From Octopus vulgaris (taxonomy: Eukaryota), in NCBI GenBank assembly GCA_951406725.2, contig OX597825.1, forward strand, positions 15,500,001 to 15,564,000: a stretch of 64,000 nucleotides of DNA, written 5' to 3'. Each line of letters opens with the position of its first letter. Positions within the stretch are counted from its first letter, which is position 1. Both the position numbers and the translations under genes were made by a program. Positions 1 to 54,671 of the stretch are shown here, piece by piece. The notes under the pieces are model-generated. The model was not told the origin of the DNA and ran no database searches. It saw only the letters and a list, made by a program, of their open reading frames with translations.

Positions 1-63
1 TAATAACTGATGAGATGCCGGAGCAGACTTCAGCCCCAGTATTCGAAACTCTGAGTTTTATTA
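1..63 (+). ncRNA. Type I hammerhead ribozyme motif (family A, Penelope pLTR-like)
   Basis: Stem I TAATAA (1-6) pairs with TTATTA (58-63); core CTGATGA 7-13; stem II region 14-44; GAAA 45-48; short near-palindromic stem III AC-TCTGA-GT; GUU cleavage triplet 55-57. Stem I may extend beyond the window edge. Confidence 0.7.
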
Positions 64-155
64 TGACAACCAACTAATTGTTACATATTATATTTATAGA
101 TAAATTCTTCTATTTTACAAAATATCGAGGTTCCATTCATTCTTTTGTTGTCATG
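1..155 (+). mobile_element. Short hammerhead-bearing repeat (family A), probable Penelope-like element terminal fragment
   Basis: Downstream tail (ttacatattatatttatagataaattcttctattttacaaaatatcgagg...ttcttttgttg) matches the tail at 30310-30380; ends near a (TA)n tract. Confidence 0.6.
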
Positions 156-176
156 TTATTATTATTAATACATACA

Positions 177-213
<37 letters not shown>

Positions 214-235
214 TTTATTTAAAGCATAGAAAATT

Positions 236-291
236 CAACAAAATCTGTTACTCTGAGTTTCTCGTTGCCGTTCATCAGACAGTTTTTGCTA
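236..291 (-). ncRNA. Minimal type I hammerhead ribozyme (family B), antisense twin
   Basis: Exact reverse complement of the 304-359 motif. Confidence 0.75.
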
Positions 292-303
292 GATTCTAGA
301 TTG

Positions 304-359
304 TAGCAAAAACTGTCTGATGAACGGCAACGAGAAACTCAGAGTAACAGATTTTGTTG
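304..359 (+). ncRNA. Minimal type I hammerhead ribozyme (family B)
   Basis: Stem I tagcaaaaactgt (304-316) pairs with acagattttgttg (347-359), one mismatch plus GU pairs; CTGATGA 317-323; stem II CG-GCAA-CG (GNRA loop); GAAA 334-337; stem III AC-TCAGA-GT; GUA triplet 344-346. Confidence 0.75.
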
Positions 360-454
360 AATTTTCTGCTGCTTTAAATAAAGCGTATTACTCCACCACT
401 GGTATTTGAGTACTCTTTTTTTCCACCTTGTTTCACATTTATGTGTTTACTCCG

Positions 455-514
<60 letters not shown>

Positions 515-28077: not shown

Positions 28078-28274
28078 GCCATGATAGATCGTTAGCCACT
28101 ACACACATTTTTTTCTCTCCTTGTTTCTCTCCTTGTTTTTTTTTCTGTGTCCCTTTCTGTGGAAGAGCGTAGGCTCGAAACGTGAAATACTTTTTCTATT
28201 CCTGAGCATTATACTAATACATCTGTTTGTTTTGTACACCACCTGTCTTCGTCTTTTGTTTTTTCATAAATTCT

Positions 28275-28313
<39 letters not shown>

Positions 28314-28445
28314 CATACACAAACTTACATATATATGCATATTTGTACCTATAAACAATGTATGCATTATTCCTGAGCATTATACTAATACATCTGTTTG
28401 TTTTGTACACCACCTGTCTTCGTCTTTTTTTTTTTCGTAAATTCT

Positions 28446-29809: not shown

Positions 29810-30088
29810 GTACATAATATCGAAGTCTCTTCGATATTATGTAAATAGATGAATTTATCTGTAACTGTAATAAGTGGCACTTATTCGGTAGCCATGATAA
29901 AACTCCGAGTTTCGGATGTCTGGGTGGAAATCCACGCCGCCATCTCTTCAGTTATCCGGCCATCGCAAAAATTGCATTTTTTCAGATGGCCGGATAAGTG
30001 AAGAGATGGCAGCGTGGATTTCAATCTAGGCATCCGAAACTCGGGGTTTTATCATAGCTACCGAATAATTGTGACATATTACATTTAC

Positions 30089-30092
<4 letters not shown>
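29810..30092. mobile_element. Family A fold-back element with hammerhead motif in each arm
   Basis: Arms about 29856-29964 and 29985-30092 are reverse complements with several mismatches; ends in (TA)n. Confidence 0.85.
29891..29960 (-). ncRNA. Type I hammerhead ribozyme (family A), intact core
   Basis: Minus strand: gccggataa CTGAAGA gatg..gtggatttccac..catcc GAAA c tcgga GTT ttatcatggc; stem I gataa/ttatc plus gcc/ggc. The plus-strand twin (29989-30058) has GTGAAGA (C3G). Confidence 0.7.
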
Positions 30093-30134
<42 letters not shown>

Positions 30135-30141
<7 letters not shown>

Positions 30142-30393
30142 AATATGTTATTACTCGATAGTCAAGATAAAATCTGAGTTTCAGATGCCGAAGTGGGAAT
30201 CCACGACATCTCTTCGGTATCTGGCTATTTTCCAGATAACCGAAGACATGTCGTGGATTCCCACTTCGCATCTAAAACTCAGAGTTTTATCTTGACTATC
30301 GAGTAATGTAACATATTATTGTATAGATAAATTTCCTCTATTTACATAATATTGAGGTCTCTTTCTTTCTTTTGTTATTTTACCGTTTTACCA
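30135..30393. mobile_element. Second family A fold-back element with degenerate hammerheads
   Basis: Arms 30135-30224 and 30232-30325; both carry CCGAAGA cores; right arm has AAAActcagagTT-ttatc; tail matches 80-155. Confidence 0.8.
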
Positions 30394-30426
<33 letters not shown>

Positions 30427-30431
30427 TATGG

Positions 30432-30606
30432 TGGGGGAGAGTTCACAAAATAAAAACAAAAGACGAAGACAGGTGGTGTAGACAACAAACAGATGTATTA
30501 GTTTAACGCTCAGGAAGTGGAAAAGTCTTCTACATTTCGAGCCTACGCTCTTCCACAGAAAGAAACAAGGAGAGAAAATAAAGAATGTGTAGTGGCTAGC
30601 GATTTA
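30432..30606 (-). mobile_element. Family C repeat with variant hammerhead motif
   Basis: Minus strand tcttt CTGTGGA a GAGC-gtag-GCTC GAAATGTA gaaga; homologous to 28078-28280. Confidence 0.65.
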
Positions 30607-42261: not shown

Positions 42262-43610
42262 CGGGGGACGTTATGAGGCAGATAGAAGAGACAGAATATA
42301 AGTACTCGGTGATATTGGAAATAGATAAATTGATGGAGAAGCAATGACAGAAAAATTTAAGGGGGAGTACTTGCGCAGACTGAGACTGATCCTTCAGTCA
42401 AAATTAAACGGACGGAATAAGATCGAAACTATCAACACCTGGGTGGTTTCAATCCTTAGATACGGAGCAGGGTTAATCACATGGGCAGTAGACGAACTAA
42501 ACAGCTTAGACAGAAAGACAAGTAAGTTGCTAACAAGATATGGATCACTCCATCCAAAAAGTGACACAGGATGAAGAGGACTTATTGGATGCGAACACAG
42601 CATTAGAGCAGAAGAAAACAACATAGCATGGTATGTAAAAAATGCCACAGAACCGCTATTACGAGAAGTAAGGAGGTCAGGCTTGTGTAAGATGGAAGAT
42701 TGCAAAGATAAAGGATTATACGAGAATTTGAAAACGATTGAAACTGAAAAGAGGTGGGTAAAGATAAGAATGCATGGTCAATTTCATAGGGATGATGAAG
42801 ATAAAACAGACAGAGAAAAAGATGGTTGTGGATGACTAAAAGTAATTTAAAACCGGAAACGGAGGCTCTAATCTGTGCTGCCGAAGAGCAAACACTAAGA
42901 ACAAACTACATAAAATACAACATAGACAACACAAGAGAAATTGATAAATGCAGAATCTGTGGACAAAACGGTGAAACCGTATGGCATAGTAACAGCCAAT
43001 GTATGCCACTAGCACAGAAGGAATGTGAAAGACGCCACGACAATATAGCCAGGCTTGTCCATTGGACACTTTGCAGTAAGTATGAACTTAACAGAGCAAA
43101 GAATTGGTACGAACACAAACCTGAAGGCATCGTCGAAAATAGAAATGCAAAGATCTGATGGGATTTTATGATTCAGTGCGAGCATGAGATAGAGAATAGT
43201 AAGTCAGACATAGTCTTAATTGAGAAAGAAAACAAACTATGCTGGATCATAGAGATAGCATGCCCGGCTGACAACAAGGCATGCGATAAAGAAGAAAGAA
43301 AAGTCGAGAGATATGACAGGTTAGCTTGGGAAGTTAAGCAGTTGTGGTCGATAAAAAAGGTAGCAGTAGTACCAATAATTGTCGGAGCCCTGGAGACAGT
43401 GAGCAAAAATCTCGAGAAGTAGGTGTAACAAATAGGGGTTGCAATAAGAGTGGAGCACTTGCAGAAAACAGCACTGCTTGGAACTGCTTGAATACTCCAG
43501 AAGGTTCTCGAAAAAAAAAGGGGCGTTACCTTAGTTCACTGGTAATGAACGGCTAACAGTGTAGTACATCTCCAGCGTTAGAACCGTTTGCTTTAGTGAA
43601 ATGCAATAGA
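42262..43610 (+). pseudogene. 5'-truncated R4/Dong-type non-LTR retrotransposon (RT thumb, CCHC knuckle, restriction-like endonuclease)
   Basis: Fragments YKY..I; EYLRRLRLILQSKLNGRNKIETINTW..LRYGAG..LDRKT..LHPKSD; MHGQF; LKPETEALICAAEEQTLRTNY..KCRICGQNGETVWH..C..RRHDNIARLVHW; KSDIV..IIEIACP..VPIIVGAL. Frameshifts and stops present. Confidence 0.88.
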
Positions 43611-46300: not shown

Positions 46301-46626
46301 GCGATAAAGTAGGAATGTCCTTTTACTTTCTTTTAGCATTTACTCTAAGGAGAGAGCTGGTGGATGGAACATTCGAATAGATCCTTTCAGTATTTAGCAA
46401 CATTCAGTAACTGCATGTTTACGTTCTCAGTTTACATACCCTTAACAGAAACTCACAAGCTATGTTTTATTGTCGTCAATTCTGAGGTCCATAAAATAAG
46501 TACAATGAAAAATGGTGGATATTCAAATCCAAGATGGTGAGGCAAATTTAGGAATAATTTGTCAGTCGTCAGAGAAGAACGAGAGACGTTCTTGTACCAT
46601 TTTGTATTTTATTTATATATATATAA

Positions 46627-46999
46627 ATTAAATAATGAGGGTAAAAATTGATATCAATCAATTAACATCAATTTAAACCAGTAGTCTAGCATATTCAGAA
46701 AAAAATGCGAAGAATTAAAAATTTATATTACAATTAATAAGAGGAATGACCACTAAAGAGGATTCCTATACGCTAGAGGTAGACGTCAGATCGCCTTATC
46801 ACAAACAGTTTGTTCTAAAAAAAATACCCAGCAAACGCCAAAATGTAAAGAAAATAACCAAGATAAATGGAAATTTGCAAAATAAAATGATTACCTAGAT
46901 TTCTTGAGAACACACTCTTTGTGGTAAGGCGATTTGACGTCTATCTCTAGCGTATAGGAATCCACTTTAGTGGTCATTCCTCTTATTAATTGTAATATA
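46627..46999. repeat. (TA)n-embedded fold-back element, arms about 46724-46816 and 46907-46999
   Basis: tatattacaattaataagaggaatgaccactaaag.ggattcctatacgctagag.tagacgtca.atcgcctta.cacaaa is mirrored on the other strand; 46627-46730 resembles 39844-39935. Confidence 0.85.
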
Positions 47000-47546
47000 T
47001 ATATAATGGAATATCGTGTTTTTTAATCTACAACACAGAAATCCGATAGCGTTTTTTAGACATCTCCACCTTCCTGCCTCCTGCAACCTCTTCCTGTTAA
47101 ATTCTACCAGTATTCTATGAGTGCGTGTGATGGACAGGAAAATTTCTAAATATTGGTTGGCAGCTTGGAGAGATAGGCATCAAATGGCTACAATATTAAA
47201 CTGTTTGGTCATCGCCGGCTGGAATAGAAAGAGAGGGACAGAGAGTGTAAAAGTGAAACGGATAGAATTAAATATGTCTGGTCAAAGCACAGCCAAAGAT
47301 TTTACTTGTATTCTTTCCGATGTTCACCAGTCATAAATTAAATAAGTAGTAACTTTGTAATTAATATTGCAGTTGTGTAATTAGTTTATTGTGTTCACAG
47401 AAAGAAGTAAAACCTCAATAGTGATAATTTCCGCAACATCTAACAAATAGCGATCGACGACAACCTGGCACTAAAATTCATAATATAATAAACAACGTCC
47501 ATCACAAATTATAACATCTAGAAAATTCTAAACTACACCTGCCTCC

Positions 47547-53399: not shown

Positions 53400-54671
53400 C
53401 GAGGGGCGTTCAATAAGTAATGCCCCTGACCCACTTCCCATAGCAGTAGAGCAACGAAACTTGGCACAGGTATTAGTCTTTTTCTACATAGGAACAACCC
53501 AGAGGTACGCATTTCTCCCATCGTTTGATGCAGTTCTGGAGACCGTTTTCGTAGAAGACCCAGCTTGGTCCCCCAACCACGACGTGACTTCAGAAATCAA
53601 GGCTGCATCATCTGGGAAACGCTTTCCTTTCAAAAACAACTTCATGGCTGGGAAGAGGTGAAAATCAGAGGGTGCAAGGTCAGGAAAGTAGGGGGGATGC
53701 GGAGGAGTTCATAGCCATACGCCTGTGCTTCTGATCTGGCGACACGCGAGTTGTGGACCGGAGCGTTGTCCTGCAGGAGGAGGATGCCTTTGCTGATCTT
53801 GCCCCGCCTCTTGGTTTCGATAGCTTCTCTTAATTTCCTCAAAAGTGAAACATGATAGGTTCCTGTAATTGTGGTACCCTTTGCCAGGAAATCTGTCATC
53901 ACTACTCCGTCCTGGTCCCAGAAGACTGTGAGCATGACCTTGCCAGCGGAGGGCTGCACCCTTGCCTTCTTTGGAGGAGGTGAGTCATTGTGCTTCCACT
54001 GCATTGACTGGGCTTTGGTCTCTGGATCATAGTGATAGACCCAGGTCTCATCCTGTGTAATCGGTCTTTTGAAAAATTTTGACTCATCTTATTGGCACAT
54101 CCCTAAATTCTTGCTTCTGGAATTCTTGCGTTCTTGCTTCTGGAAAAGTGTGAGCAACCTGGAAATCCATCTGGCAGACACCTTTTGCATATGCAAATGG
54201 TTATGAATGATAGTTGCCACAGACCTGGTTCTAATCTTGACCTCATGGCTATTTGGCGAATAGTTATGCGTCGATCTTCCAAAATGGCAGCCTCAACTTG
54301 ACGGACAGATGCCTCATCAATGGCAGAAGGGGTGCGACCAGATCTGGGAGCTGTTTCCACAGAGTTCCGACCATGTTTGAATTCACGATGCCAGCGTTTT
54401 ACAAGGTCATATGATGGGGCATCATCACCATAAGTTACTTTCATTTCATTAAAAGTCTCCTGTGGTGTGCGTCATTTCAAATACAAAAACCGGATCACTG
54501 CTCGATTCAACATGACTCATTTCAAACACCTGTAAATCAGAAACCACAATTAGTTCGGAGCTGTAATTTGCCACTTAATCTATAGAGATATCAATGATTG
54601 CACATGCAAAATTTCAGCTAGATCAAACAAAGGCAAAGTGGTCAGAGGCATTACTTATTGAACGCCCCTCG
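53400..54671 (-). mobile_element. Full-length (~1.27 kb) mariner transposon with TA TSD
   Basis: TA-cgaggggcgttcaataagtaatgcccctgacc ... ggtcagaggcattacttattgaacgcccctcg-TA. Confidence 0.95.
53472..54520 (-). pseudogene. Mariner DD34D transposase, frameshifted
   Basis: ORFs 54103-54444 (YGDDAPSYDLVKRWHREFKHGR..APRSGR..DRRIT) and 53642-54004 (SAGKVMLTVFWD..LLQDNAPVH); also TQDETWVYHYDPETK and PDLAPSDFHLFP; several frameshifts. Confidence 0.92.

Follow-up and report, generated by a model that had tools for sequence, protein, structure and literature searches.

The locus consists of two inverted arms enclosed by two AT microsatellites, in a window (the whole stretch of octopus DNA that was analyzed) of 64 kb. 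Between 228-291 and 304-367, the arms pair perfectly over 64 bp around a loop of 12 nt (292-303). When 213-460 was shuffled 200 times, the longest perfect arm arising by chance was 13 (mean 6.9), and the predicted folding energy of the fold-back hairpin (−131.9 kcal/mol, z −27.4) was equaled by none of 200 shuffles. The exact inverted arms that a sequence-only reading of this DNA had pointed out were thereby confirmed. Its statement that there are zero mismatches between them is true for the inner 64 bp and not for the full arms, which extend as far as 213 and 383 and contain a single mismatch plus a gap of 1 nt, located at 226-227. The extent given there (to 383) was too small, as the unit runs to 457 on one side.

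The whole unit can be read as (TA)n, inverted arm, direct arm, one-sided tail, and (TA)n. Its left flank is a CA + (TA)16 tract (179-212, no strand assigned), to judge from its sequence the likely target site. It is followed by an inverted, 5′-truncated copy of an element end (213-293, minus strand), which is the short arm, has no tail, and holds a hammerhead motif on the minus strand with its A17 at 249. In the head-to-head junction (290-303, again without strand), the joint that is commonest in the repeat family described below is duplicated in tandem, as two 7-nt units (290-296/297-303) with one mismatch. The direct, 5′-truncated copy of the element end (304-383, plus strand), delimited by arm pairing and contig comparison, begins with a type I hammerhead motif (304-359, plus strand) recognized by sequence scan and folding. 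It continues into a tail of 74 nt present on this side only (384-457, plus strand), which is part of the repeat family according to contig depth and ends against the right flank, a second CA + (TA)n tract (458-515, no strand, from the sequence). With both flanks being CA + (TA)n, a target duplication is not readable inside the microsatellite. No second copy of the fold-back unit was found in the 64-kb window and no tandem direct repeat at the locus itself.

The conserved core nucleotides of the hammerhead and an NUH site are present on the plus strand (C3-A9 at 317-323, G12-A15.1 at 334-337, U16.1 at 345, and A17, the base at the cleavage site, at 346), and are mirrored on the minus strand. 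Helix I (304-316/347-359) comprises 12 pairs and one A·A mismatch (312/351), and helix III is a palindrome of 9 nt (337-345). Helix II has only 2 bp (325-326/331-332; stem II length 0 in the scan) with a GNRA loop (327-330), and between it and the core lies A324·A333 in place of the expected 10.1-11.1 pair. High conservation of a G10.1-C11.1 pair in hammerheads is stressed in the accessible text of Cervera and de la Pena (PMC4209133); a literature search for data on helix II mismatches in hammerheads found none. A scan for the core combined with helix I and helix III yielded four matches in the window, compared with a mean of 0.07 and a maximum of 1 in 200 shuffles, in which base pairs were permuted blockwise and dinucleotide content was preserved only approximately. 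Hence, the “complete minimal type I hammerhead” claimed earlier is borne out for core, cleavage site, and helix III, and not for the closing pair at 10.1/11.1, which is A·A. The search with hammerhead models that had been suggested on that occasion gave no match to the Rfam hammerhead families in the window at gathering score; on 1-600, with E up to 10, none of 51 Rfam matches was to a hammerhead. Matches to miRNA models in the same region stayed below gathering score throughout and are due to the hairpin as such. A second hammerhead family present in the window was likewise missed by the Rfam models.

Folding predictions disfavor the monomeric ribozyme: 304-359 alone is predicted to misfold (−11.2 versus −6.5 kcal/mol for the hammerhead form). 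For two copies of 304-359, the cofold minimum is a double hammerhead (−24.6 versus 2 × −11.2 kcal/mol), in which the duplex of the palindromic helix III is predicted at −7.4 kcal/mol. This agrees with the palindrome and dimer formation put forward earlier, as a prediction; since the helix III pairs in trans have a predicted probability of about 0.3, it is a marginal one. The U333 variant restores the 10.1-11.1 pair, yet its predicted dimer minimum is no hammerhead. PLE (Penelope-like element) hammerheads cleave slowly and as dimers, as far as the accessible parts of two reports go (PMC4209133; PMC6765202). For the entire fold-back, prediction favors the hairpin over the ribozyme fold by 91 kcal/mol; as read from the sequence, the antisense arm is transcribed first on either strand. 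Thus, the ribozyme would be silent in read-through RNA, and masking by the long hairpin, another earlier proposal, is upheld by the predicted energies. The same does not apply to the idea of a special or selected self-masking switch, because very many such stubs exist and their joints vary. Masking more likely arises incidentally, from the geometry of insertion, than as a selected switch.

The repeat family is very abundant. In the public run X7, classed as DNA-type, 1,179 contigs matched 298-460, and 9,347 (X1), 5,112 (X2), and 2,981 (X3) contigs matched 1-620, the latter numbers including the second hammerhead family; the family data consist of short assembled contigs with summed depths, which are no copy numbers and are biased toward the reference. 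Depth continued through the tail (384-457) in all four runs compared with 298-460. Family contigs stop at mirror position 383 against (TA)n, others run on beyond 293. Loose ends of (TA)n were seen behind 383 in four of four runs on 1-620 and in two of four on 298-460, and behind 457 in four of four runs on 298-460. Upstream of the ribozyme, other copies continue with non-hairpin sequence (four of four runs on 1-620), and one contig of 815 nt (run X19) has 739 nt of it; a 14-letter motif of this upstream part, with up to two mismatches allowed, had no copy in the window. DNA pattern scans gave no match in metagenome contigs or prokaryote genomes. Seven viral matches to a 16-letter pattern were discarded as chance, being protein-coding phage DNA without the hammerhead core.

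In contrast to the two ends at 383 and 457, the joints vary. Altogether 69 were found and, among the 15 displayed, 14 link the arms at different truncation points. The commonest omits 7 letters at 297 and accounts for 63%, 57%, and 64% of the depth there in X1, X2, and X3, respectively, and for 0% in X5. It lies on the 5′ border of helix I, and it is this joint that is duplicated in tandem in the loop of the studied copy. Every other displayed joint had a depth below 240, versus 4,850 for the commonest, in run X1.

The family also varies within the hammerhead. Position 351 differs from the studied copy in 49-67% of family depth; with regard to covariation in the helices, this commonest variant of helix I falls at the mismatch. 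At position 333, the share of U in depth is 9-33% and that of G 3-41%; hammerhead position 4 frequently carries C (17-64% of depth). One variant copy, with loose ends at 308, keeps a 3-bp helix II and the GNRA loop through a one-sided change. As a side observation, C at position 4 also occurs in two copies of the second hammerhead family, and the canonical core of the studied copy is two CpG-to-TpG steps apart from the loose-end variant (317-323). Both arms of the studied copy carry the same letter at the family-variable positions 318/277, 333/262, and 351, which suggests that one RNA variant was copied twice. Gene conversion, offered earlier beside a recent origin for the identity of the arms, is thus not needed.

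From all this, the locus is likely an inert stub left by the insertion of a Penelope-like retroelement, copied twice head to head; we assign this reading a probability of about 0.8. According to it, the enzyme of the element would nick both strands of a TA tract, the same RNA end would serve as template for both copies, which would start at sites separated by 74 nt, and these short copies would be joined head to head at their truncated ends. Two fixed ends combined with variable joints fit two cDNAs primed from both strands of one cut; as an insertion route, two-sided priming is proposed from geometry, which is what was compared with the data. Because both arms run through A17, the template was presumably uncut at this position or re-ligated. 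The hammerhead would be inherited from the pLTR of the element, and for two free copies, a double-hammerhead fold is predicted. If read-through RNA were made, the hairpin would be expected to win, leaving the ribozyme silent and the transcript an ordinary repeat dsRNA open to ADAR.

The parentage of the family is probably Penelope, to judge from the architecture of the unit. The PLE insertion unit, as described in the accessible text of PMC8557442, has an inverted 5′-truncated copy, a tail at one end, a hammerhead in the pLTR, and a bias toward microsatellites, and the corresponding part of PMC3846280 depicts an inverted pLTR, a 31-bp tail, and head-to-head junctions for Pen2a of Adineta. Three features of the EN+ PLE insertion unit were found here, that is, an inverted 5′-truncated copy joined head to head, a tail at one end only (384-457), and a hammerhead motif in the repeat end. 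Opposite-strand hammerhead pairs, 100-700 bp apart, occur in Schistosoma (PMC4209133, accessible part). The inverted-pLTR origin from Penelope suggested earlier is thus in agreement with both the unit and the published insertion units. Evidence against it is that, among 211 ORFs of the window (62 aa or more, low-complexity ones dropped), none matched a Pfam family of RT or GIY-YIG, and that the tail is longer than in the published units. As an alternative route to the junctions, Arkhipova and colleagues, in what could be accessed of their 2013 paper (PMC3846280), explain them by self-priming on an antisense template.

The window contains further elements of related form. At 1-152 (plus strand) lies a second type I hammerhead with an intact core (C3 at 7, H17 at 57), a long helix II, and a similar helix III palindrome; it is likely the tailed arm of another fold-back cut by the edge of the window, and its TA tract houses the studied locus. 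The second family, moreover, forms two head-to-head pairs, at 29,834-30,090 (arm identity 85%) and 30,138-30,395 (also delimited as 30,138-30,332; 89.5%); in both, the short arm runs into the same (TA)n tract and the other arm is longer. One core of these pairs is intact (minus strand, H17 at 29,901), the other three are altered. Head-to-head pairs ending in (TA)n in a second family count toward the Penelope-type reading of the stub. A third family is represented by a 96-bp inverted pair (46,721-46,816/46,907-47,002; 93%), which ends in a brief run of TA; no hammerhead core was detected in 46,600-47,100 by a scan with relaxed settings. A further short repeat family was observed at 525-588, 28,208-28,270, 28,379-28,441, and 30,456-30,502, two copies of which adjoin a TA tract that closes a hammerhead fold-back. 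Apart from two weak matches below cut-off, the Pfam search of the ORFs returned pieces of mariner transposase, corresponding to mariner-type remnants (HTH_48, Transposase_1) at about 1,850-2,700 and 53,640-54,470, both on the minus strand. An ORF piece at 42,805-43,158 (plus strand), without a Pfam match, presumably resembles the C-terminal part of a non-LTR retrotransposon of the restriction-endonuclease type.

Whether such hairpins are edited was assessed from family-wide signals in runs whose RNA-type label is predicted, none being recorded as RNA, against unmatched DNA. At the cleavage-site base, A346G amounted to 19.5% of depth (16 contigs) in the RNA-type run X5, versus 0.021%, 0.004%, and 0% in X1, X2, and X3. 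In three of three further RNA-type runs, taken from three other studies, this change had no entry at the 2% threshold, whereas the neighboring positions 343, 347, and 349 had; the same table for 298-460 may be incomplete, as it also omits the frequent variants at 318 and 333, probably because they lie near the start of the compared stretch. A-to-G changes of about 2% were seen at 336, 343, and 349, in one RNA-type run each, compared with less than 0.1% in the DNA-type run X7. The share of A-to-T at 347 equals that of the change at 343 in X19, which indicates a variant copy. These small excesses, together with the editing of palindromic repeats and the heavy hyper-editing of octopus described in the accessible part of PMC5625713, argue weakly for the hairpin as an ADAR substrate in general, as had been surmised. 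For scattered editing of the family there is thus a weak hint, and for a general A17 switch no support. Site-selective editing of A17 was set aside in view of the three further runs.

The same data bear on a hairpin used by the host, that is, a self-masking ribozyme that Dicer would process or that ADAR would control, turning it off by editing A17. The 19.5% in X5 and the 2% excesses would suit it, as would the hyper-editing of octopus and the finding, in the accessible text of PMC3923133, that inosine at the cleavage-site position slowed an engineered hammerhead about 30-fold. This explanation is nevertheless very improbable: 346 was silent at 2% in the three runs from other studies, the RNA label is guessed and the signals are those of the family, the Pfam search of 211 window ORFs revealed no host gene near the locus, and the ribozyme is already predicted to be off in the perfect hairpin, so that an edit would add nothing. 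A related conjecture, improbable but somewhat less so, is that the palindrome of helix III serves as a dimerization signal that brings two uncut RNAs to both TA nicks, and that ADAR edits A17 in some tissues, thereby holding the ribozyme uncut. If true, it would explain the frequency of fold-back stubs, the intact A17 in both arms, and the position of the turn, on the 5′ border of helix I.

Two explanations concern the element itself. If the stub derived from a non-coding repeat of the retrozyme type, with tandem hammerhead units and circular RNA, that borrowed a Penelope enzyme, both the missing ORF and the uncut A17 in both arms would be accounted for, the latter by a ligated circle, and non-LTR retrozymes are known in molluscs (PMC7229834, accessible part). 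The lack of a tandem direct repeat at the locus, the minimal form of the hammerhead with its very short helix II, and the at least 739 nt found upstream in one contig, which exceed the 220-390 bp of the mollusc and coral monomers given in the accessible text of the same source, make this origin unlikely. It overlaps with the Penelope reading anyway, as the insertion mechanism would be identical. Alternatively, the fold-back could be a non-autonomous mobile unit, a master hairpin amplified whole, by the RT of Penelope in trans or in the manner of a MITE. The dominance of a single joint (57-64% of loop depth in three runs) would also fit a ready-made hairpin that was re-mobilized, and RNA-type contigs from X5, X12, and X20 cross fold-back joints, all of other family copies and none assigned to the studied locus. 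A joining hot spot on the 5′ border of helix I accounts for that joint equally well, and the at least 14 other joints, the asymmetric ends with their one-sided tail, and the longer non-hairpin copies render a mobile unit rather improbable. For the same reasons (one-sided tail, variable joints, longer non-hairpin copies), a MITE was rejected, as its fixed symmetric ends and constant interior are absent. Finally, among the contigs listed, none spans the whole locus, as would be the case for a fold-back chimera created by assembly; with arms that differ at 226-227, an asymmetric loop, and the same type of joint in several independent runs, such an artefact can practically be dismissed.

As one stub among very many, the single locus matters little. 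For the Penelope-type insertion, the value lies in the family, whose spread of joints and two fixed ends record how Penelope-like elements insert, a question still unsettled. Furthermore, the long dsRNA that underlies heavy A-to-I editing in such genomes likely comes in part from perfect hairpins of 64-80 bp, dispersed in high copy number. What PLE hammerheads do is an open question according to the accessible text of PMC8557442; editing of A17 or dimerization of the template, if true, would give them a function. A literature search, outside subscription journals, repeat libraries, and the supplements of PMC4209133 and PMC8557442, returned no published description of the octopus family; these supplements list families and may include it.

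Among known systems, the palindromic repeats edited by ADAR in Xenopus (Harbinger) and lizard (Penelope), as presented in the accessible part of PMC5625713, share with the octopus locus that they fold on themselves into long dsRNA without a partner; unlike the Harbinger of Xenopus, the locus is a retroelement stub and no DNA transposon, and its editing is only hinted at. With the non-LTR retrozymes of metazoans, it has in common a non-coding nature, a type I hammerhead, high copy number, AT-richness, and occurrence in molluscs, yet those are tandem direct repeats with canonical hammerheads, whereas an inverted stub with a minimal hammerhead is found here (PMC7229834, accessible text). Closer in sequence are the minimal hammerheads of metazoan PLEs (Cervera and de la Pena 2014, PMC4209133), which, in the accessible part of that study, are likewise type I with a full core and a palindromic helix III, and which also share the predicted dimer fold, the variability within a family, and the pairs on opposite strands. 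They differ in having a long helix II with G10.1-C11.1, as opposed to 2 bp behind A·A, and a helix I of 4-5 bp, as opposed to the long one of 12 bp (same source and extent); the C at position 4 that is common in the octopus family sets it apart from them, too. Closest in architecture is the EN+ PLE unit (Adineta vaga Pen2a, PMC3846280; Craig et al, 2021, PMC8557442). In contrast to this unit, the locus has no ORF between or beside its arms, which are about 80 nt long, its tail measures 74 nt instead of the 30-40 bp in the accessible published descriptions, and its target duplication is unreadable. The (TA)n target resembles that of Naiads and the microsatellite bias that of Neptune (PMC8557442, accessible part). 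As far as these two sources could be accessed, the head-to-head inverted copy, the one-sided tail, the variable 5′ truncation, and the hammerhead in the repeat end are the same. This architecture has thus already been published in other animals, and the octopus locus adds a further member.
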